From Bryobacterales bacterium (GTDB lineage: Bacteria; Acidobacteriota; Terriglobia; Bryobacterales; UBA6623), in NCBI GenBank assembly GCA_965205085.1, contig OZ242039.1, positions 2,981,911-3,045,910 of the forward strand: a stretch of 64,000 bases of DNA, written 5' to 3'. Numbering within the stretch: position 1 is the first letter of the stretch; each line of letters opens with the position of its first letter. The notes beneath the pieces are model-generated. The model made no database searches and was not told where the DNA came from. It saw only the letters and a program-made list of their open reading frames with translations. The translations under genes and the position numbers were made by a program. Of this stretch, positions 2,731 through 64,000 are shown piece by piece.

Positions 2731-2900
2731 GCCCGATGTAGAATGTTGGCAGCGAGCAAGACCCGGCCGCCCCGGAGAGCGGAGGGACAACGGAGCGTCG
2801 CAGTCGCACGGAATAGCGTGCAGGGCCCGGCAGACAACCCTTTCCGCGCTCCCCATTGGCCGGTCTGGTCCACCGTGCGGTGTCGCGAAAGGAAAGAGCG
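2731..2900 (+). repeat. Remainder of spacer S1: TSD, TAGAAT box and long-variant leader of copy 2
   Basis: Continues the spacer consensus immediately after the IS66 TSD. Same long leader variant as 10795-10956. Confidence 0.8.
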
Positions 2901-4466: not shown

Positions 4467-4493
4467 GGGACCGGGAACGAGCCGTACTCCCAG

Positions 4494-6016
4494 CAGGCAA
4501 ATTCAATGTTTGCCTGAGAGGGCCTAGGAAAGGCAGCAGCAGGCGCACCGCCGCGTTCGGCTGGAAGCGCAACTGGCTCATGCGGCGCTGGATGTTCTGC
4601 ACTTTCAGCAAGCGCAGCAGCGAGATGGCGAAGTTCGAGATCGCGGCCAGCAAGCGCGGCAGGGCGCCCTTGCGAATGCGGCTGCGATCCTCCCGGAGGG
4701 CTACGTCGCGGACGTAGTGCACGCGGTTCTCGATGCCCCAGTAGTGACGGTTCAGTTGCAGCAGCCGTTGCGGCGTGATCTGGTCCGGGCGCAGACTGGT
4801 GATCAAGTAGATCGTCTCCGGCTGGCGTTGCCGACCGTCCTTCTTGAACTCGACCTCACGGCGCACCTGGGCCACGCAGCGAACCCCGGGAAACTCGAGC
4901 CAGGGCTGCTTCGGATCGAGTTCCTGCGAGACGCGCAAGGTGCGCTGCTCGATGCGTCCGTGGTCGAGACCGGACTCGCTGTGGGGGGTCTGGCCAGCCC
5001 AGTCGATACCGTCCCGGATCGGCTCCAGCAGCGTCGGCTGATTGCCCTTGACGGTCAAGAGGAAGTCGAAGCCATCGGCCAGCAGTTGCGCAGCCGTCTC
5101 ACGCTGGGTGTGCAGCGCATCGGCCAGCACGCACAGTTTGCGCCCGTGGAGTTGCGCGCGCGTCAAACGCCGCAGGGCGGCCGCCTCGGCATCTTCTTTC
5201 TGGCCGCTGAAACCGAGTTGCGCAACGACCGTGCCGGAGTCGATGTCGAGTGCCGAGAGTTGCTGCTGGGGTGGCTTGGCCTGCGGCTGGCCAGCCGCGT
5301 CCAAGTCCCGGTCCTACGACCCGCGCAGCACTTTGCCGTCGATCGCCACGGCCGACAGCAAGGGCTCCGCAGCGCCCTTGCCGGCCGCCTTCGCAGCGGG
5401 CGGGGGCAGAACTTGCGCTGCGGTCCAGGCGGCCAGCAAGCGCTCGACCTGGCACAGCGGTACGACCGGATGGCCTGCAGTGTGGACTGGTCCAGCGCCC
5501 GCCCGAAATCGCTCCATTCGGTGAGACTCTGACAGCCTGCCAGCCCGGCTGGGGCTGGCTGGCAGCCAGTTGCGTCGGCACCTGACGGTGCAGGGGATAG
5601 ACGAAGACCCGCTTGGGCAGGCCATGAGCCTGATAGCCGCGGGGTGCGCCCCGAACCCGTCGGTAGCCTTGGGTCTGACCGATTTCCAGCCAGTTCGCGG
5701 CACGATAGCAGGTGCCGGCAAACCGCCGCGGATCGACGAAAGTCTCAGCCAGCAAGAGCGGTGCCGCAGGCTGGCGTTGCCGCTGAGTCCAGCCAATCCA
5801 GCGCTCGCGCGCGGCACAGTGCCAAGCCGCCGACTGCCAGCCCAGCAGGGCCAGCTCCTGCTCGCCGAGCACGGCGACTTGGCGCAAACGCTGCCCGCAC
5901 AATTGGCGGAATCCGAGATCGTGCTGGGCCCGCATCAAGGCATTCCAGCTCGCTTCTTCCTCGCGCCGGACGGTGCGCACGCGCACCGCCCGCAAGGGAA
6001 TCGGATCCAAGGCCAC
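4494..6016 (-). pseudogene. ISAs1-type DDE transposase with DUF4338-like N-terminal domain; frameshifted and carrying an in-frame TAG
   Basis: Three ORF pieces. 5099-6016 has WIGW...FAGTCYRAANW...VFVYPL, resembling the N-domain of the IS4-like transposase at 54296-56629. 5314-5817 ends AIDGKVLRGS then TAG at 5314-5316. 4288-5304 is in the same frame and has HGRIEQR...HYWGIENRVHYVRDVALREDRSRIRKG, typical of ISAs1. The ORF has no stop inside the element and runs out antisense into copy 2. Confidence 0.75.
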
Positions 6017-6111
6017 TCTGGGTGTTATCGCGCATCCAGCACCTCTTTGTCCACCCCTCCCCGCTGCCCCTTACCCCCACGCCTAGCCAAACCAAGCTTT
6101 GAAAATCCCTG
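4494..6111 (-). mobile_element. ISAs1-like insertion sequence, decayed
   Basis: Imperfect IRs CAGGCAAATTCAATGTTTG (4494-) and CAGGGATTTTCAAAGCTTG (reverse complement of -6111); the CAGG(G) ends fit ISAs1. Flanked by a 10-bp duplication GTACTCCCAG (4484-4493 and 6112-6121). Excision restores the spacer consensus 27 nt after the copy-2 stop codon. Confidence 0.8.
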
Positions 6112-6648
6112 GTACTCCCAGGGGTTGCGATGCAGTCGCCCGCAGGAGCTTCCTTCGCGAGCATCCTGGAGCGGAGTGCACCGCTCCCTGCAATACACAT
6201 GGAACACCGCCACCGACCCACCAGACGATCGTTGGGAGCGCCTTCCCGATACGCCTATGGGGGCACGATGAAGCGACGGTGATTTCCCCTGAAACTCGTA
6301 AGGGCAGGCTTTGACATGGACTTGCTGACTTGCCGTGGGCGACCTCCGTGCTCCGGCCCTCCCAGACCTGCCCACAACCCCCATTCACGCCATCTGGCCG
6401 CCAAAGTGGGGCTGATCCAAGGGGTGCCGATCACGCAGCAGTGAGCGCAGTGGCGCGCCGGGGTGCCTCCGGCATCCCACCATGCAGACACTCGCGCATC
6501 GTCAATGGCAGGGGCTTGCCGAGAAATCGCATCGGTGCGATTCGCCGCCCGATGTAGAATGTTGGCAGCGAACAAGACCCGGCCGCTCCTTCCGCGCACC
6601 CCATCGGCCGGTGTGGTACACGATCCGGTGCTGCGAAAGGAAAGAGCG
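6112..6648 (+). repeat. Array spacer S2 (continuation after ISAs1 insertion), short-variant leader of copy 3
   Basis: Near-identical to 8232-8768. Confidence 0.85.
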
Positions 6649-8214
6649 ATGACCCGACAGCGCCTTCCAATCGGGATCCAGTACTTCCGGCGCCTGCGGG
6701 AGACCGGCAGCTATTATGTCGACAAGACCTCCCTCATCCGGCAACTGATCGAGCAGGGGGACTACTATTTCCTGTCCCGGCCGCGCCGCTTCGGCAAGAG
6801 TCTGTTGCTGGACACTTTGGCATCGCTGTTCGAGGGACAAGAAGCCCTGTTCCGGGGTCTGGCCATCCACCCGCACTGGGACTGGTCCTCGCCGCACCCG
6901 GTGGTGCGGCTTAGCTTCGACGGGAAGTACAACCAGCCGGGCGAAATCGAGGGGGACATTATCGAGCAGTTGGAGGGCATGGAGTGCGAGTACGATCTCG
7001 CGCCGGCCCGGTCCTCCGATACCGGCCCGACGCGTCTCCGCAACCTGCTCCGGCGGCTGCATAGCAGCACTGGCCGGCAGGTGGTGGTGCTGGTGGACGA
7101 GTACGACAAGCCGATCCTCGATGTGCTGCACGACCCGGAGCTGGCAACCGCCAACCGGGACTACCTACGCGGCTTCTACGGCATTGTCAAGGACAGCGCC
7201 AGACATGTTCGCTTCGTCTTCGTTACCGGCGTCAGCATGTTCTCCAAGGTCAGTCTCTTCTCGGGCCTCAACAACCTGAAGGACATCAGCCTCGACCCTC
7301 GCTATGCCACCCTCTGCGGCTACCGGGAGGAAGACCTGGACCGGGTCTTCGGCCCCGAGCTGGCCGGGCTCGACCGCGAAACGATCCGCACCTGGTACAA
7401 CGGCTACCACTGGTTGGGCGAAGAGCGGGTCTACAACCCCTACGATGTGCTCCTGCTGCTGGATACCCGCAAGTTCCAGCCCTTCTGGTTCGAGACCGCA
7501 TCGCCCGAGTTCCTGTTCCGGATGCTGATGGAGAAGTCGGTCAGTCCGATGGAAATCGAGGGCCGCCTGACGGACAGCACGCTGGTCTCGAAGTTCGATG
7601 TTGGCAACATTAGTATCGAGGCGCTGCTCTTCCAGACCGGCTACCTGACCATCGCGGAGGAGCTGCAGCAGGGTCATCGGACCCTCTACCGTCTGGACTA
7701 TCCCAATCTCGAGGTCCGGCTCAGCCTCAACGACCAACTGCTGGCCTGGCTGGGCCAGGCGGGCTCCGAGCCGGTGGAGCGGGGGCAAAGGCTCTGCGCG
7801 CTGCTGGAGGCGAACGACTTCGCCGGCTTCGGCGAGACCTTCCGCACGTGGGTCTCGGGCATCCCCTACCAGTGGCATACGAAAGGGGATCTCGCGCGCT
7901 CGGAAGCCTGGTACGCGGGCATGCTCTACATGTGCCTGCGCGCCGGCGACGCGGACGTGAGGGTAGAGGAGGCATCCTCGCGCGGCCGGGCGGACATGGT
8001 GCTGCGTCACGGCGGGCAGGTCTTCGTGGTGGAGTTCAAGATGGCGGAGGGCGAAGATGGCGGCGAGGCCGCGCTGGATGCGGCGATGGCCCAGATGCGC
8101 GGCCGGAGCTATGCGGACAAGTACGGGGGCAACGCCGAGCCGGTCCATCTGATCGGCGTGGCCTGCGGACGCGAGGCCAGGAACCTGCTGGAGGTTCGCG
8201 CCGAACCGGCTTGA
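6649..8214 (+). CDS. AAA-ATPase-like / PD-(D/E)XK family protein, array copy 3
   Basis: 521 aa. MTRQRLPIGIQYFRRLRETGSYYVDKT...RPRRFGKS...GRADMVL...VVEFK. The upstream in-frame extension to 6463 lies in the spacer and is rejected. Confidence 0.9.
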   Translation: MTRQRLPIGIQYFRRLRETGSYYVDKTSLIRQLIEQGDYYFLSRPRRFGKSLLLDTLASLFEGQEALFRGLAIHPHWDWSSPHPVVRLSFDGKYNQPGEIEGDIIEQLEGMECEYDLAPARSSDTGPTRLRNLLRRLHSSTGRQVVVLVDEYDKPILDVLHDPELATANRDYLRGFYGIVKDSARHVRFVFVTGVSMFSKVSLFSGLNNLKDISLDPRYATLCGYREEDLDRVFGPELAGLDRETIRTWYNGYHWLGEERVYNPYDVLLLLDTRKFQPFWFETASPEFLFRMLMEKSVSPMEIEGRLTDSTLVSKFDVGNISIEALLFQTGYLTIAEELQQGHRTLYRLDYPNLEVRLSLNDQLLAWLGQAGSEPVERGQRLCALLEANDFAGFGETFRTWVSGIPYQWHTKGDLARSEAWYAGMLYMCLRAGDADVRVEEASSRGRADMVLRHGGQVFVVEFKMAEGEDGGEAALDAAMAQMRGRSYADKYGGNAEPVHLIGVACGREARNLLEVRAEPA

Positions 8215-8768
8215 GGGACCGGGAACGAGACGTACTCCCAGGGGTTGCGATGCAGTCGCCCGCAGGAGCTTCCTTCGCGAGCATCCTGGAGCGGAGTGCA
8301 CCGCTCCCTGCAATATACATGGAACACCGCCACCGACCCGCCAGACGATCGTTGGGAGCGACTTCCCGATACGCCTATGGGGGCACGATGAAGCGACGGT
8401 GATTTCCCCTGAAACTCGTAAGGGCAGGCTTTGACATGGACTTGCTGACTTGCCGTGGGCGACCTCCGTGCTCCGGCCCTCCCAGACCTGCCCACAACCC
8501 CCATTCACGCCATCTGGCCGCCAAAGTGGGGCCGATCCAAGGGGTGCCGATCACGCAGCAGTGAGCGCAGTGGCGCGCCGGGGTGCCTCCGGCATCCCAC
8601 CATGCCGACACTCGCGCATCGTCAATGGCAGGGGCTTGCCGAGAAATCGCATCGGTGCGATTCGCCGCCCGATGTAGAATGTTGGCAGCGAACAAGACCC
8701 GGCCGCTCCTTCCGCGCACCCCATCGGCCGGTGTGGTACACGATCCGGTGCTGCGAAAGGAAAGAGCG
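8215..8768 (+). repeat. Array spacer S3: about 315-nt 3' module (candidate structured RNA) plus about 240-nt leader
   Basis: Complete, uninterrupted spacer. Strong hairpins at 8288-8307 (GGAGCGG/CCGCTCC), 8580-8598 (GGGGTGCC/GGCATCCC) and 8645-8662 (AATCGCA/TGCGATT). Long-range pairing 8422-8428 with 8487-8493. Confidence 0.85.
8675..8680 (+). promoter_or_regulatory. Possible -10 box TAGAAT for the downstream array copy (equivalents at 2739, 6555, 10795)
   Basis: TAGAAT is conserved 89-157 nt upstream of each ATG. I could not find a convincing -35, so this is weak. Confidence 0.2.
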
Positions 8769-10334
8769 ATGACCCGACAGCGCCTTCCAATCGGGATCCA
8801 GTACTTCCGGCGCCTGCGGGAGACCGGCAGCTATTATGTCGACAAGACCTCCCTCATCCGGCAACTGATCGAGCAGGGCGACTACTATTTCCTGTCCCGG
8901 CCGCGCCGCTTCGGCAAGAGTCTGTTGCTGGACACTTTGGCATCGCTGTTCGAGGGACAAGAAGCCCTGTTCCGGGGTCTGGCCATCCACCCGCACTGGG
9001 ACTGGTCCTCGCCGCACCCGGTGGTACGGCTCAGCTTCGACGGGAAGTACAACCAGCCGGGCGAAATCGAGGGCGACATTATCGAGCAGTTGGAGGGCGT
9101 GGAGTGCGAGTACGATCTCGCGCCGGCCCGGTCCTCCGATACCGGCCCGACGCGTCTCCGCAACCTGCTCCGGCGGCTGCATAGCACCACCGGCCGGCAG
9201 GTGGTGGTGCTGGTGGACGAGTACGACAAGCCGATCCTCGACGTGCTGCATGACCCGGACCTCGCGACCGCCAACCGGGAGTACCTGCGCGGCTTCTACG
9301 GCATCGTCAAGGGCAGTGCCAGACATGTTCGCTTCGTCTTCGTTACCGGCGTCAGCATGTTCTCCAAGGTCAGTCTCTTCTCGGGCCTCAACAACCTGAA
9401 GGACATCAGCCTCGACCCTCGCTATGCCACCCTCTGCGGCTACCGGGAGGAAGACTTGGACCGGGTCTTCGGCCCCGAGCTGGCCGGGCTCGACCGGGAA
9501 TTGATCCGCACCTGGTACAACGGCTACCACTGGCGGGGCGGAGAGCGGGTCTACAACCCCTACGATGTGCTGCTGCTGCTGGATACCCACGAGTTCCAGC
9601 CCTACTGGTTCCAGACCGGCTCGCCCAACTTCCTGTTCCGGATGCTGATGGAGAAGTCGGTCAGCCCGATGGAAATCGAGGGCCGCCTGACGGACAGCAC
9701 ACTGGTCTCGAAGTTCGATGTCGGCAACGTCGATGTCGAGGCGCTGCTCTTCCAGACCGGCTACCTGACCATCGCGGAGGAGCGGTCGGACGATTTCGAT
9801 ACCCTCTACCGTCTCGACTATCCCAATCTCGAGGTCCGGCTCAGCCTGAACCGGGGATTGCTGGCCTGGCTGGGCCAGCGGCGCGCCGAGCAGCTGGTGC
9901 AGGGACGGAAACTCTGTGCGCTGCTGGAGGCGAACGACTTCGCCGGCTTCGGCGAGACCTTCCGCGCGTGGGTCTCGGGCATCCCCTACCTATGGCATAT
10001 GAAAGGGGACCTCGCGCGCTACGAGGCCTGGTACGCGAGTCTCCTCTACATGGGTCTGCACGCCGTCGGGGCGGACCTGAGGGTGGAGGAGGCCTCCTCG
10101 AGAGGCCGGGCGGACATGGTGCTGCGTCACGGCGGGCAGGTCTTTGTGCTGGAGTTCAAGATGGCGGAGGGCGAGGACGGCGGCGAGGCCGCGCTGGATG
10201 CGGCGATGGCCCAGATGCGCGGGCGGGGCTATGCGGACAAGTACAGGGGCAACGCCGAGCCGGTCCATCTGATCGGCGTGGTCTGCGGGCGCGAGGCGAG
10301 GAACCTGCTGGAGGTTCGTGCCGAGCTGGCTTGA
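8769..10334 (+). CDS. AAA-ATPase-like / PD-(D/E)XK family protein, array copy 4
   Basis: 521 aa, same N- and C-terminal signatures. The middle block IAEERSDDFDTLYRLDYPNLEVRLSLNRGLLAWLGQRRAEQLVQGRK is shared only with copy 5. Confidence 0.9.
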   Translation: MTRQRLPIGIQYFRRLRETGSYYVDKTSLIRQLIEQGDYYFLSRPRRFGKSLLLDTLASLFEGQEALFRGLAIHPHWDWSSPHPVVRLSFDGKYNQPGEIEGDIIEQLEGVECEYDLAPARSSDTGPTRLRNLLRRLHSTTGRQVVVLVDEYDKPILDVLHDPDLATANREYLRGFYGIVKGSARHVRFVFVTGVSMFSKVSLFSGLNNLKDISLDPRYATLCGYREEDLDRVFGPELAGLDRELIRTWYNGYHWRGGERVYNPYDVLLLLDTHEFQPYWFQTGSPNFLFRMLMEKSVSPMEIEGRLTDSTLVSKFDVGNVDVEALLFQTGYLTIAEERSDDFDTLYRLDYPNLEVRLSLNRGLLAWLGQRRAEQLVQGRKLCALLEANDFAGFGETFRAWVSGIPYLWHMKGDLARYEAWYASLLYMGLHAVGADLRVEEASSRGRADMVLRHGGQVFVLEFKMAEGEDGGEAALDAAMAQMRGRGYADKYRGNAEPVHLIGVVCGREARNLLEVRAELA

Positions 10335-10956
10335 GGGACCGGGAACGAGCCGTACTCCCAGGGGTTGCGATGCAGTCGCCCGCGGGAGCTTCCCTCGCGA
10401 GCATCCTGGAGCGGAGTGCACCGCTCCCTGCAATACACCTGGAACACCGCCACCGACCCGCCAGACGATCGTTGGGAGCGACTTCCCGAAACGCCGATGG
10501 GGGCACGATGAAGCGACGGTGATTTCCCCTGAAACTCGTAAGGGCAGGCTTTGACATGGACTTGCTAACTTGCCGTAGGCAACCTCCGTGCTCCGGCCCT
10601 CCCAGACCTGCCCACAACCCCCATTCACGCCATCTGGCCGCCAAAGTGGGGCTGATCCAAGGGGTGCCGATCACGCAGCAGTGAGCGCAGTGGCGCGCCG
10701 GGGTGCCTCCGGCATCCCACCATGCAGACACTCGCGCATCGTCAATGGCAGGGGCTTGCCGAGAAATCGCATCGGGGCGATTCGCCGCCCGATGTAGAAT
10801 GTTGGCAGCGAGCAAGACCCGGCCGCCCCGCAGCGCGGAGGGACAACGGAGCGTCGCAGTCGCACGGAATAGCGTGCACGGCCCGGCAGACAACCCCTTC
10901 CGCGCTCCCCATTGGCTGGTCTGGTCCACCGTGCGGTGTCGCGAAGGGAAAGAGCG
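10335..10956 (+). repeat. Array spacer S4, long-variant leader of copy 5
   Basis: 3' module near-identical to S1 and S3. The leader carries the roughly 68-nt extra segment also seen upstream of copy 2. Confidence 0.85.
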
Positions 10957-12522
10957 ATGACCCGACAGCGCCTTCCAATCGGGATCCAGTACTTCCGGCG
11001 CCTGCGGGAGACCGGCAGCTATTATGTCGACAAGACCTCCCTCATCCGGCAACTGATCGAGCAGGGCGACTACTATTTCCTGTCCCGGCCGCGCCGCTTC
11101 GGCAAGAGTCTGTTGCTGGACACCCTGGCGTCGCTGTTCGAGGGGCAAGAATCCCTGTTCCGGGGTCTGGCCATCCACCCGCACTGGGACTGGTCCTCGC
11201 CGCACCCGGTGGTGCGGCTCAGCTTCGGCGGGAAGTACAACCAGCCGGGCGAAATCGAGGGGGACGTTATCGAGCAGCTGGAGGGCGTGGAGTGCGAGTA
11301 CGATCTTGCGCCGGCCCGGGCCTCCGATACCGGCCCGACGCGTCTCCGCAACCTGCTCCGGCGGCTGCATAGCAGCACCGGGCGGCAGGTGGTGGTGCTG
11401 GTGGACGAGTACGACAAGCCGATCCTCGATGTGCTGCACGACCCGGAGCTGGCAACCGCCAACCGGGACTACCTACGCGGCTTCTACGGCATCGTCAAGG
11501 ACAGCGCCAGACATGTTCGCTTCGTCTTCGTTACCGGCGTCAGCATGTTCTCCAAGGTCAGTCTCTTCTCGGGCCTCAACAACCTGAAGGACATCAGCCT
11601 CGACCCTCGCTATGCCACCCTCTGCGGCTACCGGGAGGAAGACCTGGACCGGGTGTTCGGGCCCGAGTTGGCCGGGCTCGACCGGGAATTGATCCGCACT
11701 TGGTACAACGGCTACCACTGGTTGGGCGAAGAGCGGGTCTACAACCCCTACGATGTGCTCCTGCTGCTGGATACCCGCAAGTTCCAGCCCTACTGGTTCC
11801 AGACCGGCTCGCCCAACTTCCTGTTCCGGATGCTGATGGAGAAGTCGGTCAGCCCGATGGAAATCGAGGGCCGCCTGACGGACAGCACGCTGGTCTCGAA
11901 GTTCGATGTCGGCAACGTCGATGTCGAGGCGCTGCTCTTCCAGACCGGCTACCTGACCATCGCGGAGGAGCGGTCGGACGATTTCGATACCCTCTACCGT
12001 CTCGACTATCCCAATCTCGAGGTCCGGCTCAGCCTGAACCGGGGATTGCTGGCCTGGCTGGGCCAGCGGCGCGCCGAGCAGCTGGTGCAGGGACGGAAAC
12101 TCTGTGCGCTGCTGGAGGCGAACGACTTCGCCGGCTTCGGCGAGACCCTCCGCGCGTGGGTCTCGGGCATCCCCTACCTATGGCATATGAAAGGGGACCT
12201 CGCGCGCTACGAGGCATGGTACGCGAGCCTGCTCTACATGGGTCTGCACGCCGTCGGTGCGGACCTGAGGGTGGAGGAGGCCTCTTCGCGAGGCCGGGCG
12301 GACATGGTGCTGCGTCACGGCGGGCAGGTCTTTGTGCTGGAGTTCAAGATGGCGGAGGGCGAGGACGCCAGCGAGGCCGCTCTGGATGCGGCGATGGCCC
12401 AGATGCGCGGCCGGGGCTATGCGGACAAGTACGGGGGCAACGCCGAGCCGGTCCATCTGATCGGCGTGGCCTGCGGACGCGAGGCGAGGAACCTGCTGGA
12501 GGTTCGTGCCGAGCTGGCGTGA
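10957..12522 (+). CDS. AAA-ATPase-like / PD-(D/E)XK family protein, array copy 5 (last)
   Basis: 521 aa, same signatures, TGA at 12520-12522. Confidence 0.9.
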   Translation: MTRQRLPIGIQYFRRLRETGSYYVDKTSLIRQLIEQGDYYFLSRPRRFGKSLLLDTLASLFEGQESLFRGLAIHPHWDWSSPHPVVRLSFGGKYNQPGEIEGDVIEQLEGVECEYDLAPARASDTGPTRLRNLLRRLHSSTGRQVVVLVDEYDKPILDVLHDPELATANRDYLRGFYGIVKDSARHVRFVFVTGVSMFSKVSLFSGLNNLKDISLDPRYATLCGYREEDLDRVFGPELAGLDRELIRTWYNGYHWLGEERVYNPYDVLLLLDTRKFQPYWFQTGSPNFLFRMLMEKSVSPMEIEGRLTDSTLVSKFDVGNVDVEALLFQTGYLTIAEERSDDFDTLYRLDYPNLEVRLSLNRGLLAWLGQRRAEQLVQGRKLCALLEANDFAGFGETLRAWVSGIPYLWHMKGDLARYEAWYASLLYMGLHAVGADLRVEEASSRGRADMVLRHGGQVFVLEFKMAEGEDASEAALDAAMAQMRGRGYADKYGGNAEPVHLIGVACGREARNLLEVRAELA

Positions 12523-54272: not shown

Positions 54273-56688
54273 CTGCCTATGCCCCATAAGTGAAGTCAGG
54301 GCTCCTCGATCGAGACGCTGGCAGGTGGCTCGCAGGAATCGCGCAGGGTATAGGCTTCGCTCATGATCGACAAGCGGTTCCAGCCCTCCCAGGTCTTTTG
54401 GTGTCCCGGGGGCGGGGCGTTGGCGCGGTACTGGTAGCCACCCAGAATCGCCATCGTGCGCAGCGCCAGGCCGAGGTTGCGGGGCGGGTCCAGTCGGCGC
54501 TGGGTCGCGAAGTCGTGCAGGACGCGCAACTGCTGGGAGGTGAAGCAAACCGTGGCGGGCAGCTCGGGGGTAGCCCGGCCCAGCAGCGTCAGCACCGCCA
54601 GGCGCCAAGCGATGACGGCTTTGATCGTGACCGCCCGCGTGATGCGCTGACCCGTGCGGTGGCCCAAGGACTCGGCCTTGCAGCCGGACTTGAGAATCCG
54701 GTGCCAGTCCTCGATGCGCCAGCGGAGCCGGTACCAGCGCAGGACGCGCTCGGCATCCGCCAGCGAGGTGACCGGGAGCGTGGTCAGCAGGAACCACTCG
54801 AGGGCCTCGCCGGCGGGGGCTGGGGAGCGCTCCCAAACGTGCACACACTGCAAACGCAAGGGTTCCTGGCTGGGGGCGGGCGGCAACTCGACCGTCTGCC
54901 AGCGCACCTCGGCGCAGGCCGTGCGGGCCTCCCGGAGCGGCTTGGCCGCCTGCTGGCGGCTGCCCCGGCGCGCCGAACTGCGCGGCACCTCGATCTCGAT
55001 CTGAGCCCGGGCCGCTTGGGCCCGGAGGTGATCGAACAGCTTGGGCTGGTCGGGTCCCAGGCTGCGGTTGTGCCGGGCCCGCACCAGCAACTCGACCCGC
55101 CGTAGCTGGCGTTGCTCGGCGAACAGGGCCTGCACATCCGCCTCGCGGTCCAGCACCGCAACCAATTGCGTGTCCGACAGTTGGCGCGCGACAGCGGCGC
55201 AGTCGCGCAAGCCCTGGATCCACTGGAAGGTCTTGCGCTCCTCGAGCGGTCGTCCGGGCTCGGCCTGCCCGTCGGGCGTCGCATACTGAATCTTGAGCAG
55301 GCCCAGCGGGAGGCCTTCCGGGTTCAGCGCCATGGTCGTATGCATGTGGATTCCGAGCGTGCCCTCCGCCCCGCGGTTCTTGCCGATCAGGCCCAGCCCG
55401 GCACAGCCGGGATGCGTGGCGAAATTGAGATCGGTGCCGTCCTGTACGCATAGCACCACCCGCTCGGCCTGCATCCGCCGCAGGGTGCGCTGGCGGTGGG
55501 GCTCGAGAATGTTGTCGGGGGTCACCGCCGAGTCGTCCGGCTGGTCGATGAGCCGGTAGTGGCCCTTGATGGCGGCGCGCTGGCCTTGGGCGGCGGTGGG
55601 GATCGAGGCCATCGGAGCGGCGGCTTGCATCTGCGCGGTCTGCACCAGCCGCTGGGACCAGCGTACATCCCCCAAGCGCGCCCCGCCCAGTTCGTTGGAG
55701 GCGAACTCGTCGAGGGCGAGTCCTGCGCCCGCCTCCAGCGGCTTCGCCGGCGGTGGGGCGCTGGCACCCAGTTGCTGCCGCCAGTCGCGCTGCAGCGGGT
55801 AGACGAAGATGGCCTTGACCGGCACACGTTGGTCGGGGGCGGCGAAACGGCCGCGTCCGGTGGTCTGGCCGACATAGGTCCAGTTGGCGGCACGGAAGCA
55901 GGTACCGGGATGCTGCCGGGGGTCACAATAGGTTTCCAGCAGCACGGGCCGGTAGCGATAGCGCTGCTGGAAATCGGCGGGCAGGCGGCGCAAGACCAGC
56001 CCGAGCACCTTGGAGGCGAGGCCGTCACAGCGTACGCCAGGCCGGATCAGGAACCGGCTCAGGTTCAGCACACCGTGCAGCCGCTTGCGGCGCATGGCCG
56101 CCGACCAGCCGATCCATTCGTCGCGCGCGGCGACCGCGAGGGCCGCTGCGGCAAAGCCGAGCGCACCGAGCACACCGTTTTCCGATTCAACCAGATAGCG
56201 TACTTGGGCCCCGACATGGAGGACGGCCCCATAGGGGTGCTCGCGGGCCATGAGTTCGTTCCAGACCTGGCGCTGCTCGGCCGTCGTGACCAGACTCAGT
56301 TGCAAATCCACCACGTCCGCGACACGGGCCGGCACGGCCTGCGCGGCGGGGACCGGCTGGTCCAGGCCCCGGGGGCGGCCCGGTCCGCGCCGGCCACAGG
56401 GACGGGCCGCTGGCAAACGGAGATGGCCTTGGTCTTCCAGACCGCGCAAGGCTTGCTTGCAAGTCGCCAGTTGCCACTGGCCGCGACTGTCGCGCAAGTC
56501 GAAGGCTTGGCACACCTGACGCACGAAGGCGGTCCGATTGACCTCGCCAGCCTGCGCCCGCAGGGCCTGCAGAGTCGCTAGCGAGGCGGGCTGCGAGAGG
56601 GTCTCCAGAATGCAATGTTGATCGAGCATGTCCTAGACATGCCACAACGACACTAAAAAGTCAACTGCTTTCTGTGGGGCATAAGCAG
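54273..56688 (-). mobile_element. IS4/Tn5-like insertion sequence, intact
   Basis: IRs CTGCCTATGCCCCATAAG (54273-) and CTGCTTATGCCCCACAGA (reverse complement of -56688). 8-bp TSD CCTGCGAC (54265-54272 and 56689-56696). Excision restores the host reading frame. Confidence 0.85.
54296..56629 (-). CDS. IS4/Tn5-like DDE transposase with DUF4338-like N-terminal domain
   Basis: 777 aa. N-domain WIGWSAAMRRKRLHGVLNLSRFLI...GTCFRAANWTYVGQTTGRGR...IFVYPL. C-terminal Tn5-like DDE region (VLCVQDGTDLNF...LVAVLDREAD...WRIEDWHRILKSGC). Confidence 0.85.
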   Translation of the reverse strand: MLDQHCILETLSQPASLATLQALRAQAGEVNRTAFVRQVCQAFDLRDSRGQWQLATCKQALRGLEDQGHLRLPAARPCGRRGPGRPRGLDQPVPAAQAVPARVADVVDLQLSLVTTAEQRQVWNELMAREHPYGAVLHVGAQVRYLVESENGVLGALGFAAAALAVAARDEWIGWSAAMRRKRLHGVLNLSRFLIRPGVRCDGLASKVLGLVLRRLPADFQQRYRYRPVLLETYCDPRQHPGTCFRAANWTYVGQTTGRGRFAAPDQRVPVKAIFVYPLQRDWRQQLGASAPPPAKPLEAGAGLALDEFASNELGGARLGDVRWSQRLVQTAQMQAAAPMASIPTAAQGQRAAIKGHYRLIDQPDDSAVTPDNILEPHRQRTLRRMQAERVVLCVQDGTDLNFATHPGCAGLGLIGKNRGAEGTLGIHMHTTMALNPEGLPLGLLKIQYATPDGQAEPGRPLEERKTFQWIQGLRDCAAVARQLSDTQLVAVLDREADVQALFAEQRQLRRVELLVRARHNRSLGPDQPKLFDHLRAQAARAQIEIEVPRSSARRGSRQQAAKPLREARTACAEVRWQTVELPPAPSQEPLRLQCVHVWERSPAPAGEALEWFLLTTLPVTSLADAERVLRWYRLRWRIEDWHRILKSGCKAESLGHRTGQRITRAVTIKAVIAWRLAVLTLLGRATPELPATVCFTSQQLRVLHDFATQRRLDPPRNLGLALRTMAILGGYQYRANAPPPGHQKTWEGWNRLSIMSEAYTLRDSCEPPASVSIEEP

Positions 56689-56956: not shown

Positions 56957-58045
56957 CTAGTGTATCTCGCTAGAAATTCCTTCACAGTAGGATTTCAGTG
57001 ATTTCAGGATATCGTCAGCGCTCTTGGTCCAGATCAAGGGTTGGGGGTCTTCGTTGTAGACCTGCAAGTACTCCCTGATGGCCGCTTCCAGCGCCTGGGT
57101 GCTGCGAAACGTTCCGCGCCGAATCCGCCGCCGTGTGATCTCCGCAAACCAACGCTCCACCTAGTTCAACCACGAGGCACTGGTCGGTGTGAAGTGCAGG
57201 TGGTAGCGCGGCCGCCGTCGCAGCCAATTCTGGATCTGCGCAGTCTTGTGGGTCCCGTAGTTGTCGAGGATCAGATGCACATCGTGGGTCTCTGGCACCG
57301 CCTTGTCGATCCGCGCCAGGAACTTCTTAAACTCGACGGCGCGGTGGCGCCGATAGCACTTGCCGGTCACCTCGCCGGTCGCGATATTCAGGGCCGCAAA
57401 CAGGGAGGTCGTCCCATTGCGCTTGTAGTCGTGGGTCTGCCGCTCGGGGACTCCCGGTTGCATCGGCAACACCGGCTGGGTGCGGTCCAGGGCCTGAATC
57501 TGTGATTTCTCATCCACACAAAGCACCACCGCGCGCTCGGGCGGATGGAGGTACCAACCGCCGATATCCCGTACTTTCTGCACAAACTGCGGGTCCTGCG
57601 ACAGCTTGCATGTCTCGCTCCGATGTGGCTGGAGACCGAACGCACGCCAGATGCGGCCGATGGTGGAGGGACTCAGTCCCGAGGCTTGGGCCATCCACTT
57701 ACGACTCCACTGGGTTGCCCCTCGGGGACGTGTCTGCAAGGTCCGTACCACGACCTGCTCCACATCGGCATCCGTCACCGTCCTCGGCGCACCGGAGCGG
57801 GGTTGGTCCAGCCAGCCGTCGCAGCCGTCCTCAAGGAACCGACGCCGCCATTTCCCGACCGTGACGCGAGTGGTATGCAAGCTGTCTGCGACTTGCTGGT
57901 CACTGCGGCCTTGGGCTGACTGAAGGATGATGCGCGCCCGCAAGGCCAGCGCCTGCGAGGTCTTCTGCCGTCGCAGCCAGCGATTCAGTTCCTGGCGTTG
58001 CGGGTCCGAGATTTGGGGGGATACTCGCGTATGTTGATTGGCCAT
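56957..58045 (-). pseudogene. IS630-family transposase interrupted by an in-frame TAG
   Basis: ORFs 57161-58045 and 56957-57160 are in one frame, separated only by TAG (57161-57163) inside the conserved motif SWLN*VERWF (normally SWLNQVERWF). The terminal stop TAG is supplied by the flanking CTAG target. Confidence 0.8.
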
Positions 58046-58118: not shown

Positions 58119-59447
58119 TAGGCACACGAAGGCGAGGACGATGGCATTGAGTTCTTCGGCGGCACCGCCGATTGCAGGTACTGCGTGTCGAGCGGTTCCA
58201 AGGATGATTCGCTCGACTGGGCCTTCGGCTGGCAGGGCACGGCCCAGTACGTGTTCATCCAGCAGGATCCGCAGGGTGACAACGGCATCGAGGCCGACAA
58301 CGACAGCCTAGGCTTCGACCGGATGCCACGCTCCCATCCGAAGCTCTACAACGTGACACTGGTGGGCGGTTATGCGCAGGACGAGACTTCCCAGCATGGC
58401 GGCGACGGCATGCGGCTTCGCGTGGGGATGGCCGTCACGGCACGCAACCTGCTGCTGACCGGCTTTGGCGGAAACGCTCTGGACGTGCGCGACAACTCGC
58501 TGGCGCTGTTCGCCGATGGCACCAGCAGCATCATGAACGCGATCATCCATGCCAATGGCAACATGATGGGCGACGATCAGATCAGGGGTGGCGTGGCCTG
58601 CTCGGTGCACTACATGGATGTCGCTCCGATGTTGGTCAACGTGCGCTACGAGGGCAACCCCGATCCGCGCCCGATGCTCGGACCGCCGGCACTTCTGGTT
58701 GGCAACGCTGCCACGCCTCCCAGCGACATGCACCTGCTCGACACCAGCGCGCAGTTCATCGGTGCCTTCGGCACTGAGAACTGGCTGGAAGAATGGACCT
58801 TCTTCGGTGACGAGTTCGACTAAGACACGTCCTACTAGCACGGCTCCGCCATCAAGCCCGCAGCCGATTTGCCCAAGCTGATGAATTTCGCCCCCGGACG
58901 CCTTTCCTCTCGACGGAGGAACGGTCTGCTTCGGTACGGCCCCTCGAACGGTCCCCAGTTCCGCAGCCTGTGCGCCGAACGCGTAGCAGCCGAGCCACGG
59001 TTCTTGCTTCATCGCGGGACGGACAGCGGCTGTTGCCAGCGCCAAGCAACGAACACGCTGCTGCGGCTTCCACGGGCGGTCACCGGTCCCAACTGTTCGA
59101 AGCAGCCCGCCAGCGCGTTCAAACCGTAGCAGGTTTTCGGCACTACACGTCCACGACGCGCAATACACTCCCGCCAATGCGCACAGTGCAGCGTCGCAAG
59201 CGCCAGCCACTGGCGCTTGCAGCCTGTCTTGATAACAGCTGACCGAGGTGTTGCTGATGACGAATGCCGATTTGGCGCTGGGTCAGAGATTACCGTTAGG
59301 CACCACGTCCTGCATTCGCCTCCCTTCTTCGAGGCAGTGCGCCCACACGGGCCAGATTTCATCCCGCTCGCGTCGCCAGTACTGACACGGACCACAGTCT
59401 CATTGCACGAATTACGTCCACGCACGAAACTTGCCAAAGCACTTCCT

Positions 59448-59957
59448 CTAGGCCGATACCGGATCTCCGCTGTGTTCAATTTCCATGTCGGCCTTCCGTA
59501 TCGCCTGCCAAAACTGGATCACGAAGAGTTCGAGCGAACGAGGTGGTTCATCGAATATCTCGCATAACTTGTCAAATCCACCATGCGCATACATATTGAA
59601 CTCACGCACTCCCCTGTCAGTCAAGTAGTTGCGTGAACTCGAATCCACGAATTTTCCAATCTGCTCATGGACAGCGGTTCTCTCATTGAGTGCAATACCC
59701 AATCTCCTCAATTCGCTACTGATGAACAGTGCAACATAGAGTCGGCCATAATTCTTGTAATTTCCAGGATAATAGTCGATAATGTCGGTAGTATCAGATG
59801 TCTTCATTTCCTTCCTCCGCTGCCAATGAATACCTGTCAGAAAACAGAAATAGAAGACATCAAACTCGAGCTCGAAGCGAGGTCTAGATCTATTGCTAGT
59901 ATCCTTCCGGATTCTTGCGAACCAATCCTGTGCGTCCTTTCTTATTGTGAAATACAT
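59448..59957 (-). CDS. 169-aa protein of unknown function (island gene 4)
   Basis: ATG shares one nt with the upstream TGA (TGATG). GAGGAG lies 5 nt upstream. No recognisable motif. Confidence 0.7.
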   Translation of the reverse strand: MYFTIRKDAQDWFARIRKDTSNRSRPRFELEFDVFYFCFLTGIHWQRRKEMKTSDTTDIIDYYPGNYKNYGRLYVALFISSELRRLGIALNERTAVHEQIGKFVDSSSRNYLTDRGVREFNMYAHGGFDKLCEIFDEPPRSLELFVIQFWQAIRKADMEIEHSGDPVSA

Positions 59958-61957
59958 CAGTTCTCCTCAAGATCCAATTGGAACTCGTTGAAAAACCCCT
60001 CGTCGATCACACTTAATCCATCCACCGACTTAGCACACGACTCGAAAGCGCTGGCCTTGGTGTCATAGTGGCTGACTCCAGATCGAAATAACGTAATATA
60101 TCGAATCTCGCCACAGCTTGCCTCACGCAGACTAGGCAGAAACTTCTCCCGTTCTGATGAAATCACAAAGGCGATAAATTGTTCGGTCAATTTCGGCACA
60201 AGCTCACCGATACTGGACCGAATTGCAAGGTCAATCGGATTGGCTGGGCTATCCACAATAAATGGGAGGCTATGCTCGTTTGCTCGATTGAAGAGTGTGG
60301 CGAGAAAAGCGTACCCGACTGACAGAGTCTCACCGACACTACCTGCACTCTGACCACTTAACTTCAAGCAGCCATCAATACTTGCGATGCGAATCTCATT
60401 GTGAGGCATGAGCTCTGTGATTCTGCTGTTTGCACAGTCGCGAATATCATTCAAGATCGCTGCCCGTGCGTTCTGTTGAGCACGCGTCAAGATCCAGTGC
60501 AACCTATCTCGACATTGAGTCAATTCGTACGACTTGCTGGCATCATTAACCAGATCAGTTAACCGATCAATGCCCTTCTTAACTGTCTTGATTGCGACGA
60601 TCCGCCGAGGGTCCTGCTTGTTGATTGTGTCCAACGAAAAACCGCTGTCTTCTTCGTCATACCGTCTCAACTCGCCCCTCAGTTGTCGTATCTCTGCTTT
60701 CAATTGCTCAATGTCTTGTCGCAGAATTCTGACCTTTGGGTCTGCTTTCTCGGCGGTCATCGTGAGTGCATCCAATCTATTGTGAGCGGCTGGAAGGTGG
60801 TCGCTACAGAGAGTTGAAAGTTTCCTGATCTCGTCAGATAGATTTTCGTGCTCGATACTCTGACTTGAGCCAAGAGCGTCGACAATGCTGGTCTTCATCG
60901 CGTTCAAGAACGATACGTCATCTGTACCAAGATAGTGATGCGACCTATCTTTAATGATCTCCTTGATGAACTCATCAATAGGGCGTCCACAGACACACTC
61001 CGGTTCACTCGCAAGCTCTTGGAAGAACTCTCGCGCAGCGCCCTCAGGTAGCTTCACTCGGTCAAGTCCGTCTTTCAGATCAGACAGTGTATGCGAAAAG
61101 TCCGGTGTAACCGAATGTGGTGCTCTCATCTTGTCAACCACGCGCTTCGATAGATCAGCCACTTCCTGTGTTAGCTTCCCCACCTCTCCTCTAGCCTCCT
61201 CGATTTCCTTGCAGAGCGCTTCGTGCTTGGCGATCTGCTGTCGATGACTGAGCAAAAGGTCTTGTAATTTGTCCTCGTTAGCAGACAAGGCCGCTGCTGC
61301 TTTAGACCTTGCTTGAAGGAGCTCTTTCAGTCTGGCTTCCCACAGTCTTAGTTGTGCTTCTCGTCTGGTCACACCTCGATCTGTTTTCGCTGTTGAATTC
61401 TTGGTTTGTTCGTCCCAGTACTCCCGTACTTTTCCCCGCATTCTTTCAAGCAGATGAATCTGGAACAGGCTCTCCACAGCCCGCTCCGCATGGGTTTTCT
61501 CATGATCCAATAAATCTTGAGCCAGTTCGCCGTCGAAAACATAGAAGTTCACAAACTCCTTGGTCATAAATTTTCTCACCTCGGATGAAGGATGAAAACC
61601 GCTTTGCTGACCTAAGCCCTTAGTCGTCTTATATATGACTCTCCCCAATCCAAAGTCAAATTTCATTAAGATCGTTATTCTACTCTCATTTATCGCAAGG
61701 TCGAGCCTGAATTCCCCAGATTCATTCGAACATCCTCGCTTTTGAAATGCTTTGACACAATTGGGATTCCAAGATTCAGCTGCTCCTGATAAAGCAGCCC
61801 GAAGTAGCGCTAAAGTTGTCGTTTTTCCAGTACCATTCGGCATCTGAATGAGTGTCGCCGCATATGGCCTTCCCATTGAACCACAACAGTCGATTCTGTG
61901 GTCCGGACAGCGTAGACCGACTGATTTCCATCCGAGTACTCGCATCTTAGTTGCCAT
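59957..61957 (-). CDS. SMC/DndD-like ABC ATPase with long coiled coil (island gene 3)
   Basis: Start at ATG 61957, with GAGGAG 7 nt upstream. Walker A MPNGTGKTTTL. About 350 aa coiled coil with a central ECVCGRP motif. C-terminal SVGETLSVGYAFLATLF...LPFIVDSPANPIDL (signature / Walker B-like), then QFIAFVISSE. Confidence 0.8.
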   Translation of the reverse strand: MATKMRVLGWKSVGLRCPDHRIDCCGSMGRPYAATLIQMPNGTGKTTTLALLRAALSGAAESWNPNCVKAFQKRGCSNESGEFRLDLAINESRITILMKFDFGLGRVIYKTTKGLGQQSGFHPSSEVRKFMTKEFVNFYVFDGELAQDLLDHEKTHAERAVESLFQIHLLERMRGKVREYWDEQTKNSTAKTDRGVTRREAQLRLWEARLKELLQARSKAAAALSANEDKLQDLLLSHRQQIAKHEALCKEIEEARGEVGKLTQEVADLSKRVVDKMRAPHSVTPDFSHTLSDLKDGLDRVKLPEGAAREFFQELASEPECVCGRPIDEFIKEIIKDRSHHYLGTDDVSFLNAMKTSIVDALGSSQSIEHENLSDEIRKLSTLCSDHLPAAHNRLDALTMTAEKADPKVRILRQDIEQLKAEIRQLRGELRRYDEEDSGFSLDTINKQDPRRIVAIKTVKKGIDRLTDLVNDASKSYELTQCRDRLHWILTRAQQNARAAILNDIRDCANSRITELMPHNEIRIASIDGCLKLSGQSAGSVGETLSVGYAFLATLFNRANEHSLPFIVDSPANPIDLAIRSSIGELVPKLTEQFIAFVISSEREKFLPSLREASCGEIRYITLFRSGVSHYDTKASAFESCAKSVDGLSVIDEGFFNEFQLDLEEN

Positions 61958-62189
61958 TATTGATCTCCTCAGTGCAGGCGGTCGAGTTGGATGGAAGCGG
62001 TACCCGATGATTTGTGGCGTTGTACACCAATTCGGCACGGAGACTGACGGAGTTAGGGCTGCCTAGTGATTCGTTGCCGGACGCCACTTCCGTGAACCAA
62101 GCCAGCAGCTTCTGGGCTAGGCTGTCGTTCTGTCCGGCTTCCCGAACTGCATCGGTCAGTGCGGTCTGGATCGTTGCGTCAGGCTTCAT
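61947..62189 (-). CDS. 80-aa protein of unknown function (island gene 2)
   Basis: ATG 62189 lies inside the last codons of the helicase gene (11-nt overlap), with GGGGAG 7 nt upstream. Its stop overlaps the ATPase start by 11 nt. Confidence 0.55.
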   Translation of the reverse strand: MKPDATIQTALTDAVREAGQNDSLAQKLLAWFTEVASGNESLGSPNSVSLRAELVYNATNHRVPLPSNSTACTEEINNGN

Positions 62190-64000
62190 GTCGTTGCTCC
62201 CCTGGTGGTCTTACTCGTGACAGTTGAGTTAGCCACTCACAGCGGTCTCTGTCAGCGCTAGACTCATTTGGCAAGTTCTTGGTGTGGACAAAGTCAAGGA
62301 TATTGGCTATTTTGTGCGGATCTGCTTGATTCGTTCTCAAACAGCGTCCTATCCGTTGAACTGTCTCAAGACGTGTAGCGTCCGAGGACAGGAGCATTAC
62401 TGTATTGAGTGACTTTATATCGATTCCCTCCGAAAGGCGATGACAGGTTATCAGGCATTCCAAGTCGCCACGGGCGAAGGCCCGAAGGCACTCTTTGTCT
62501 TCTCCTGAGAAATATGTATGGAAGTCAGATCTATGTTGGTGTACGATCTCCAGTGCTTGTTTCCCAAACTCTGTAGTCTCTGCGAAGATGATACATCTAG
62601 TCAAGAGCTCTGGATTTTTATTCAAGAACGCGGAGAAAAGTGGTAGTTTAGCAGCTGAAGTCTTATAAACTCGTGCAATCTCTATCGCCACTTCTTTTTC
62701 GGACATTGGATTACCTTCTCGTTTGCGACCTGCTTTCTTCTTATAGACTTTAGAAATTCGTTCCCGATCGGAGTTAGTTAAGCTAAAGTATTGAGGGTAG
62801 TATCTGAATGGAGCAAGTATGCCATGCCGGATAGCTGGCTCAAGACCGAATGTCATCAGAACAGGGCCTATATGGGTAGTTATAAAGTTACTCCCTTCTT
62901 GGTCATATGCTCTTTCTGGTGTAGCACTGAGGCCCAACCGGAAACGTATGGAATCCGACAGCCCATCTAGTAATGCTCGGTTGCCTGGGCTTCCAAGTCC
63001 ATGTACTTCGTCGTGGATCAAGAGTGTCCTTCTAGCCTGATGCTTGCTCAAGCGGCGTAGCGGCGTAGCGAGTGGTTTTCTTGATGACAGCAAGACAGCT
63101 TTTGCTGGACGCAAGAGGAATTCAATGCTTTGCTTCCTGTCGCGGTAGTGACGGAAGACACGAAGGTGGCGTCCGTCAATCTGGCGCATTTGCAGGATTT
63201 GCTCGTACCACTGGTCAAGCAGATCGTTTCCATCGGTCGATATGATCGTCGTATCAATGGCATTTTTCTTGAATAGTGTGCGAACGATCATGAGTGCGGT
63301 TCGAGTCTTACCTGTACCTGTTGCCATGTTGAGAACTCCACGCTCTGCCTTGATGAATTTCTCTAGTGCCTCATCCTGATGGTGCCATTTATTGAGAAAT
63401 CTAGGTTGGCACTGAGGCATCACTGTTGTGCGCCGTGAGGCGCGAATGAGCTTCTCTTTGACAGCATCAGGGAACGTGAAGGTATCGACACCCTCTTCGT
63501 CGTTATTCCACAAAACCTCGAAATGATGTCGCTTGCGATCCGCTCGTTCGGCATCCTTCCAAGACGGGTAGACGTCGATGCACTCCCGGTTGTTCTCGAA
63601 AGCGGTGCGACTCTCGTTCGATGATCCCGTGAAGGCGACGAAATCGCGGTCGTCGATGAATAATCCCAGCTTCTCATGGTAGATACCCGTACCTACTCTT
63701 GGCACTGCCAGTCGGATCTCCAAGCGCCCTATCTCGAGCAGCTTAGTGAGACGAGACACCCCATCGCCCACGCCGTCAGTAAATTCCTTCTCAATTATCT
63801 GCTCAAGGCGGACAGTGCAAGCTTCTTGCTTGCTGGTGCCGTTCTCAATCGCCCGTATGTCTGCCTCTGACAGCTCGACCGAGGTAACAAGACGAATAGA
63901 ACCTTCGTTCCGGAGGAAGGCACCCAGGGGGTCACCGAACGCTTCAAGGGACGAACTCGAGAAGTATCCGACTGCTCGACAGTATTCCCGAGACTCACTC
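62179..64000 (-). CDS. HKD (PLD-like) nuclease domain fused to SF2 (DEAD/DEAH, ResIII-type) helicase (island gene 1), 5' end outside window
   Basis: The frame is open to the window edge (SESREYCRAVGYFSSSSLEAF...). HKD motif HEKLGLFIDDRDFVAFTGSSNES. Helicase motifs NMATGTGKTRTAL, LIHDEVHGLG, GLSATPER, ITCHRLSEGIDI, QRIGRCLR. Confidence 0.85.
   Translation of the reverse strand, partial: SESREYCRAVGYFSSSSLEAFGDPLGAFLRNEGSIRLVTSVELSEADIRAIENGTSKQEACTVRLEQIIEKEFTDGVGDGVSRLTKLLEIGRLEIRLAVPRVGTGIYHEKLGLFIDDRDFVAFTGSSNESRTAFENNRECIDVYPSWKDAERADRKRHHFEVLWNNDEEGVDTFTFPDAVKEKLIRASRRTTVMPQCQPRFLNKWHHQDEALEKFIKAERGVLNMATGTGKTRTALMIVRTLFKKNAIDTTIISTDGNDLLDQWYEQILQMRQIDGRHLRVFRHYRDRKQSIEFLLRPAKAVLLSSRKPLATPLRRLSKHQARRTLLIHDEVHGLGSPGNRALLDGLSDSIRFRLGLSATPERAYDQEGSNFITTHIGPVLMTFGLEPAIRHGILAPFRYYPQYFSLTNSDRERISKVYKKKAGRKREGNPMSEKEVAIEIARVYKTSAAKLPLFSAFLNKNPELLTRCIIFAETTEFGKQALEIVHQHRSDFHTYFSGEDKECLRAFARGDLECLITCHRLSEGIDIKSLNTVMLLSSDATRLETVQRIGRCLRTNQADPHKIANILDFVHTKNLPNESSADRDRCEWLTQLSRVRPPGEQRHEA

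Follow-up and report, generated by a model that had tools for sequence, protein, structure and literature searches.

A cassette of four overlapping minus-strand genes, at positions 59448-64000 of a 64,000-nucleotide stretch of DNA from a Bryobacterales bacterium (contig OZ242039.1, positions 2,981,911 to 3,045,910, assembly GCA_965205085.1), is very probably a copy of the named anti-virus module PbeABCD, a system centered on an ATP-binding cassette (ABC) ATPase with a CxC motif. We refer to the whole 64,000-nucleotide stretch as the window. An original prediction, made from the letters of the window alone, recognized the four genes and proposed that they form an undescribed defence system with a gene content and order that could not be mapped onto any named one. 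We found that the genes map one-to-one onto PbeABCD. A confident match of the whole cassette to a named system was the outcome on which the prediction had made its novelty depend, and because this match was obtained the claim of novelty falls. The copy is an ordinary one of a system that is named, experimentally characterized, and widespread. All features listed in the prediction, including a 'Cys-containing coiled-coil apex', lie within the published description of CxC/PbeABCD systems. The proposal that the cassette is a defence module is supported.

The pbe, or 'phosphorothioate-blocked DNA exclusion', module was described by Xiong et al. (Nat Commun 2019, PMC6459918), who reported pbeABCD as a conserved, co-transcribed cassette located beside dndCDEA in Haloterrigena jeotgali. 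In this organism PbeA contains phospholipase D (PLD) and helicase domains, PbeB is 66 amino acids long, PbeC is an ATPase resembling structural maintenance of chromosomes (SMC) proteins, and PbeD is 152 amino acids long. The cassette provided approximately 10^4-fold protection against the virus SNJ1 that depended on phosphorothioate (PT) modification, and replication of SNJ1 DNA was blocked with no visible degradation. Deletion of pbeB, pbeC, or pbeD abolished protection and deletion of pbeA left weak residual resistance (PMC6459918). The Aravind group (NAR 2024, PMC10853773) equated PbeABCD with the CxC ABC-ATPase-centered conflict system that they had reported earlier. In their description, members of the CxC clade are defined by the CxC motif, PbeB is small, disordered, and quick to evolve, and PbeD is a cognate clade-2 DndE.

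The genes and motifs of the window copy are listed here by their coordinates in the window; P0003 is the full-length PbeA of the source genome.

62179-64000, minus strand: pbeA, truncated at its 5' end by the window edge; HKD (PLD-type) nuclease and superfamily 2 (SF2; ResIII/DEAD-type) helicase
63616-63678, minus strand: HKD catalytic motif of PbeA, HEKLGLFIDDRDFVAFTGSSN; H136, K138 ... G153-S-S-N156 in P0003 numbering
63304-63327, minus strand: helicase motif I of PbeA (MATGTGKT); invariant columns of the PbeA alignment
63001-63012, minus strand: helicase motif II of PbeA (DEVH); invariant columns of the PbeA alignment
61947-62189, minus strand: pbeB, 80 amino acids; 'SP' small protein of CxC systems, PF20304
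59957-61957, minus strand: pbeC, 666 amino acids; assigned from PADLOC PbeC models and identity to PbeC of related cassettes
61814-61840, minus strand: Walker A of PbeC, PNGTGKTTT, residues 40-48; invariant in an alignment of seven PbeC sequences
60989-60997, minus strand: CxC motif of PbeC, C321-V-C323 followed by G-R; putative zinc hook
60242-60268, minus strand: Walker B and D-loop of PbeC, LPFIVDSPA, residues 564-572; conserved in the alignment
59448-59957, minus strand: pbeD, 169 amino acids; assigned from identity to gene four of L001-L003, the three nearest cassettes
59400-64000, no strand: block of low guanine plus cytosine (G+C) content that coincides with the operon in composition profiles

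The four genes form one translationally coupled operon. The pbeA and pbeB genes overlap by 11 nucleotides (62179-62189), as do pbeB and pbeC (61947-61957), and pbeC and pbeD share one nucleotide at a TGATG junction (59955-59959). Ribosome-binding sites are present 7 nucleotides 5' of the ATG of pbeB (GGGGAG, 62197-62202), 7 nucleotides 5' of that of pbeC (GAGGAG, 61965-61970), and 5 nucleotides 5' of that of pbeD (GAGGAG, 59963-59968). No terminator-like sites or hairpins occur on the coding (minus) strand within the operon. The overlaps and the single expression unit were as predicted; the further claim that each gene has its own GAGGAG or GGGGAG held for three of the four genes, the site of pbeA being outside the window. 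P0003 is 634 amino acids long and is 100 % identical to the window copy across the 606 visible residues, so what is cut off beyond base 64000 amounts to 28 codons and the promoter region, with the start codon calculated to be at about base 64083. A GTG at 62038 was discarded as the start of pbeC; the homologues begin MATTMRILGWK and align from the ATG at 61957.

The G+C content is 0.49-0.52 at 59-64 kb and about 0.42-0.52 within the block that coincides with the operon (approximately 49 % overall), versus 0.62-0.70 in the other 59 kb (approximately 65 %), and the shift falls within approximately 50 nucleotides of the pbeD stop codon. At the third codon position, the pbe genes have a G+C content of approximately 0.50 versus 0.79-0.87 in native-looking open reading frames (ORFs) that were picked for comparison by their high third-position values. 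This agrees with the prediction of a compositionally foreign island. The pbeABCD operon is very probably horizontally acquired.

PbeA matched the PADLOC model PDLC02703 with an E-value of 6.9e-228 over profile positions 28-620 of 626. The Pfam domains ResIII, DEAD, and Helicase_C exceeded their cut-offs, and PLDc_2 was slightly below its cut-off of 27 at 25.7 bits. Across 23 PbeA homologues, H136, K138, G153, S154, S155, and N156 of the HKD site are invariant, as are helicase motifs I, II, III, and VI. These signatures (HxK...GSxN, GTGKT, DEVH, SAT, and QRxGRxxR) are all present in the window copy. Thus, PbeA is an HKD (PLD-superfamily) nuclease fused to an SF2 helicase, as had been proposed. 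More than 5,000 homologues of PbeA were found at E <= 1e-20 among 8,000 candidates scored, and the nearest relatives are from metagenomes, a metagenome-assembled genome of the Alphaproteobacteria, and Rhodomicrobium.

The original prediction had described the second and fourth genes as ORFans with no recognizable motifs, and this did not hold for either of them. PbeB matched the Pfam family PF20304 (Sp-CxC) with an E-value of 2e-8 and a score of 34.5 bits, where the cut-off is 27.5. Pfam describes this family as a 'small protein from certain CxC ATPase-based DNA modification systems'. The gene at the same position in related cassettes is also PF20304-positive, and PbeB is the small, rapidly evolving Sp-CxC protein whose gene separates those of the helicase and the ATPase. 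The fourth gene, treated below, has hundreds of homologues.

Among the PADLOC matches listed for the third gene, 18 of 25 were PbeC models, the best with an E-value of 3.9e-16, followed by LmuB (6.8e-12) and DndD (1.4e-5). The protein is 47-57 % identical over its full length to PbeC of six other cassettes. Alignment of the seven sequences showed that the Walker B and D-loop region has the consensus LPF[IV]VDSPA and that C321, C323, G324, and R325 are invariant. The CxC motif is near the middle of an insert of approximately 350 amino acids that separates the half of the ATPase containing Walker A from the half containing the signature and Walker B. The protein thus combines matches to PbeC models, Walker A and B motifs, and a mid-insert CxC motif. 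The prediction of an SMC-family ABC ATPase with a Cys-containing apex is upheld in its Walker motifs and its invariant mid-insert cysteines; we infer that the CxC motif is at the physical apex of a coiled coil and binds zinc.

PbeD and the products of the fourth gene in the three nearest cassettes are 50-56 % identical, and its hidden Markov model (HMM) score is 236 bits. It had no match in Pfam (E up to 10), NCBIfam, or PADLOC, and a single-sequence word search recovered only one homologue. A profile search was needed, and this yielded 388 homologues of 150-170 amino acids. When 1.84 billion representatives, clustered at 50 % identity, were searched exhaustively with phmmer, 328 clusters scored E <= 1e-3 and 151 scored E <= 1e-10. 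Judged from position and sequence, the orthology of PbeD is not in doubt. We built an AlphaFold2 model of PbeD from 62 sequences (predicted local distance difference test score 86.5, predicted template modelling score 0.82). It contains two strand-helix-helix units and a long C-terminal helical extension (strand 4-6, helices 7-20 and 30-44; strand 56-58, helices 67-86 and 93-103; helices 114-134 and 142-163); the loop that joins helices 7-20 and 30-44 is of low confidence. The published account of clade-2 DndE (PMC10853773) is of two ribbon-helix-helix repeats followed by a long helix at the C terminus, and the modelled topology is consistent with this. The model is consistent with PbeD being a divergent clade-2 DndE-like protein that is predicted to be the cognate partner of the ATPase.

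The original prediction had proposed co-occurrence of the four genes in unrelated genomes as a test, and the cassette passed it. We scanned 88 loci, 8 obtained by exact-protein look-ups of PbeA homologues and 80 by a metagenome scan, with HMMs for PbeA-D and DndA-E. We counted 23 distinct loci in which PbeA is at least about 31 % identical to the query with an HMM score of 426-1254 bits, and 17 of these have sufficient downstream sequence to be informative. Matches to PbeA, PbeC, and PbeD are on the same strand and in that order in all 17 informative loci, and PbeB was found in 15 of them. The cassette thus recurs in many unrelated contigs with its gene order conserved. Identity to the three nearest cassettes is 65-72 % for PbeA, 46-52 % for PbeB, 52-57 % for PbeC, and 50-56 % for PbeD. 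At distant loci, where PbeA is approximately 30 % identical, an ATPase of the DndD/CxC type usually follows; in about three-quarters of these loci the next gene is a weak match to the DndD or PbeC HMM.

In 11 of the 17 informative loci the cassette adjoins dndBCDE. These genes are directly upstream in eight (L003, L004, L006, L007, L009, L011, L014, and L022) and directly downstream in convergent orientation in three (L020, L021, and L025). Where at least 7.4 kb of upstream sequence is available, eight of nine loci carry dndBCDE there, and in L004, L006, L007, and L009 approximately 215 nucleotides separate the end of dndA from pbeA. Because of this arrangement in relatives, dndA and dndBCDE are likely to be located just upstream of pbeA in the source genome as well. 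The suggestion in the original prediction that further components are encoded upstream is reasonable by analogy, with the qualification that in relatives these are dndA and dndBCDE rather than a methyltransferase.

Other genes were observed around the related cassettes. L001 (3884-4813, minus strand) and L002 (2560-3477, minus strand) encode a ScoMcrA-type HNH nuclease with a sulfur-binding domain (PF26340 and HNH_2) a few kb upstream of pbeA, and both relatives have no visible dnd genes. This protein is predicted to be a PT-recognizing restriction enzyme, which hints at PT-related conflict also at loci that have no neighbouring dndBCDE. Directly after pbeD, L006 (14651-16489) and L007 (14574-16412) carry a type IV restriction gene of the GmrSD type (DUF262/DUF1524); in L002 (13820-15565) such a gene is on the strand opposite to pbeD, approximately 5 kb downstream of it. 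An integrase is nearby in L007. The nearby restriction genes and integrase suggest that the cassettes of these relatives travel in composite defence islands. An unannotated conserved gene encoding 487-493 amino acids follows dndE in L003 and L006, and the L003 copy had no PADLOC match. Candidate homologues are a gene encoding 493 amino acids upstream of pbeA in L002 and one encoding 487 amino acids, with a weak match to Methyltransf_23, approximately 1.3 kb past dndE in L007.

Among the known systems to which the window copy is close is the DndCDEA-PbeABCD system of H. jeotgali A29. The two share four genes in identical order that encode a PLD/helicase protein, a protein of 66-90 amino acids, an ABC ATPase of approximately 660 amino acids with a coiled coil, and a protein of 150-170 amino acids. 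This likeness is drawn from the PADLOC PbeA and PbeC models and the published description rather than from the type protein sequences. They differ in that the window copy is of a bacterial type and its dnd partner is not visible in the window. With CxC systems in general the cassette shares the HKD nuclease-SF2 helicase fusion, the Sp-CxC protein, and an ABC ATPase with the CxC motif of a putative zinc hook, and PbeD is the candidate counterpart of their cognate clade-2 DndE. Some CxC systems carry a cytosine methylase or MTaX1, neither of which was seen, and the window proteins scanned beside the cassette included no methyltransferase. The DndBCDE module is related through weak matches of PbeC to DndD models. 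However, PbeC scored 32.9 bits against TIGR03185, for which the cut-off is 245.85, and did so over residues 127-275 only; DndD has no CxC hook, whereas PbeC has one. The DndFGH module likewise is a PT-dependent restriction module found beside dnd modification genes that uses ATP-driven DNA translocation, but its proteins are unrelated and no DndF, DndG, or DndH model is among the PADLOC matches listed.

Lamassu (LmuA/LmuB/LmuC) resembles the cassette in pairing a coiled-coil SMC/Rad50-like ATPase with a nuclease effector. However, the LmuB matches of PbeC (6.8e-12 or worse) are weaker than those to PbeC models, and none of the four proteins had a PADLOC match to LmuA or LmuC. DISARM resembles it in having a PLD nuclease (DrmC) and a helicase in a modification-linked system, but the 25 best PADLOC matches of the first gene include no Drm model. 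The gene order and small partner proteins of both Lamassu and DISARM are unlike those of PbeABCD. Lamassu, DISARM, Septu, Hma, and type I/III restriction were rejected, the matches being weak and of a generic helicase or ABC-ATPase kind.

The genes, motifs, coupling, and composition described here come from the window; for the antiviral activity, its dependence on PT, and the part that all four genes play in it, we draw on the literature. A working mechanism can be proposed from the two. Host DNA would carry a self mark, most likely PT, made by DndA and DndBCDE from genes that would sit just upstream of pbeA beyond the window. A Rad50/SMC-like PbeC dimer, probably joined by the CxC zinc hook at the tip of its coiled coil, would form a complex with PbeD that loads on and scans DNA. 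PbeD may serve as a small, DNA-binding, kleisin-like adaptor that reads DNA through two ribbon-helix-helix-like repeats, and PbeB is probably a rapidly evolving regulator or a sensor of invaders. PbeA would be the effector, combining ATP-driven translocation by the SF2 helicase with the HKD phosphodiesterase site, and the replication of unmodified incoming DNA would be halted. Conservation of the HKD site suggests that DNA is in addition nicked or cleaved. PT-dependent protection by the window copy is proposed by analogy to the H. jeotgali system, which is its experimental basis.

Several observations weigh against identifying the cassette as a PT-linked PbeABCD module. The score of PbeC against PADLOC models was moderate at 57 bits, and neither PbeB nor PbeD had a PADLOC match. 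No dnd gene was found at positions 1-59447 of the window, either by the HMM scan or by tblastn with DndA-E and with the 493-amino-acid and sulfur-binding domain-HNH proteins of relatives as queries; the upstream side of pbeA is outside the window. A DndE identity for PbeD was not recovered by hhalign against four clade-1 DndE sequences (probability 0.08) or by a search of the PbeD profile against Protein Data Bank (PDB) sequences, which returned noise only. Foldseek comparison of the PbeD model to the PDB also gave no significant match. E. coli DndE (4LRV) had the highest template modelling score among the matches listed (0.43-0.45, target-normalized), with a non-significant E-value of 5-8 and a probability of 0.06. 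Lastly, the mechanism is unsettled in the literature: the one experimental test of Pbe, in haloarchaea, found a block of replication without cleavage (PMC6459918), versus the HKD-mediated cleavage or suicide proposed elsewhere (PMC10853773). PbeB and PbeD of the dnd-linked relatives are likewise unmatched in PADLOC, so the blank reflects a gap in the library and not a trait of this locus. With both proteins missed by PADLOC v2, and PbeD by Pfam and NCBIfam too, annotation pipelines will call them hypothetical proteins and the cassette is easily mistaken for something new. A profile made from the 388 PbeD homologues would close the annotation gap for this protein.

That the genes constitute an undescribed system with partial likeness to Lamassu, Septu, DISARM, or Hma is very improbable. 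It is favored by the LmuB match of the third gene, by weak PADLOC matches of the first gene to PLD_Helicase and HamB, and by the absence of Pfam, NCBIfam, or PADLOC matches for the fourth. However, the PbeA, PbeC, and Sp-CxC matches are stronger by a wide margin, the genes stand in exactly the order published for PbeABCD, and the same cassette recurs beside dndBCDE. An unlikely reading, though a more plausible one than this, is that the cassette is an inactive remnant, left stranded by the decay of a defence island in a genome with many insertion sequences (IS). Two IS elements and an unassigned, possibly truncated ORF are directly downstream, and the same IS families occur across the genome in many full and fragment copies (30 variants of IS66 and 11 of a Tn5-like element). 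Against this, the four frames are intact and of normal length (for pbeA, as judged from P0003), the overlaps and ribosome-binding sites have been kept, and all catalytic and invariant residues that we checked are present.

The alternative that deserves most weight, although it is still unlikely, accepts the PbeABCD identity and holds that this copy is solitary. It would have no adjacent dnd genes and would act independently of PT, either with another self mark such as cytosine methylation or through invader-triggered abortive infection or suicide. Consistent with this, the 59 kb downstream contain no DndA, DndB, DndC, or any other dnd gene, and L001 has none within 10 kb on either side. In a published survey only 42 % of 553 PbeAC pairs had dndCD within 10 kb and 155 of 320 solitary pairs were near methyltransferases (PMC6459918); with 58 % of pairs having no dndCD nearby, a linked dnd locus is not obligatory for PbeABCD. 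CxC systems are also reported to occur independently of DndD systems (PMC10853773), and IS activity beside the cassette could have split off its partners. However, dndBCDE is upstream in nearly all relatives of this PbeA subfamily for which at least 7.4 kb can be seen, dndA precedes pbeA by the same short distance in four of them, and in the window copy the region upstream of pbeA is out of view. No methyltransferase is present among the window proteins scanned beside the cassette. A more specific version, somewhat less probable again, is that the copy is solitary and PT-independent in a deeply branching, IS-rich, high-G+C host that has neither dnd nor ssp genes, and that it relies on another self mark or an invader cue sensed by PbeB, with the HKD domain as effector. 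If this is true, the dispute over whether Pbe blocks replication or cleaves DNA could be settled cleanly with such a copy. We favor the assignment to PbeABCD. Its consequence is the correct annotation of these genes as pbeABCD and little beyond that; what residual value the copy has comes from the contested mechanism of Pbe.

The prediction that IS elements adjoin the cassette was confirmed by two transposase genes directly downstream of the operon. An IS630-type transposase gene (56957-58045, minus strand) with DDE_3 and helix-turn-helix domains is split by a frameshift into ORFs of 294 and 67 amino acids. The second gene (54296-56629, minus strand) encodes a Tn5-like transposase of 777 amino acids, in which an N-terminal DruA-like domain (PF14236, E = 2.5e-34, residues 103-263) is fused to a full Tn5-type transposase (Tnp_DNA_bind, DDE_Tnp_1, and Dimer_Tnp_Tn5). 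The source genome contains 11 sequence variants of this protein, two of them full length and the others fragments. This number of variants indicates a multicopy IS; the DruA-like domain of its transposase takes its name from a Druantia defence protein. Between the IS630-type gene and the operon, positions 58122-58823 (plus strand) contain a frame of 233 amino acids with native-like, high third-position G+C and no Pfam match. This ORF may be what is left of a host gene that was cut short by the insertions separating it from the pbe island.

Elsewhere in the window, five housekeeping-type proteins (an outer-membrane efflux protein, a GMC oxidoreductase, a SurA-like peptidyl-prolyl isomerase, an FGGY kinase, and an unassigned protein of 328 amino acids) were found in a collection of 15 billion proteins, each as a singleton at 90 % identity, suggesting that the host has no close sequenced relative in that collection. 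The first part of the window (1-12522, plus strand) is a tandem array of four paralogous genes that encode proteins of 536-583 amino acids (2856-4466, 6463-8214, 8583-10334, and 10912-12522), with a fifth, partial repeat at the window start. The units are spaced by approximately 2.1-4.1 kb and are 84-100 % identical in nucleotide sequence. Within the array is an IS66 transposase gene (936-2573, minus strand), a member of the family with 30 variants in the source genome. The two array paralogues that were scanned each contain a 'Predicted AAA-ATPase' domain (PF09820) and a PD-(D/E)XK nuclease domain (PF08011).

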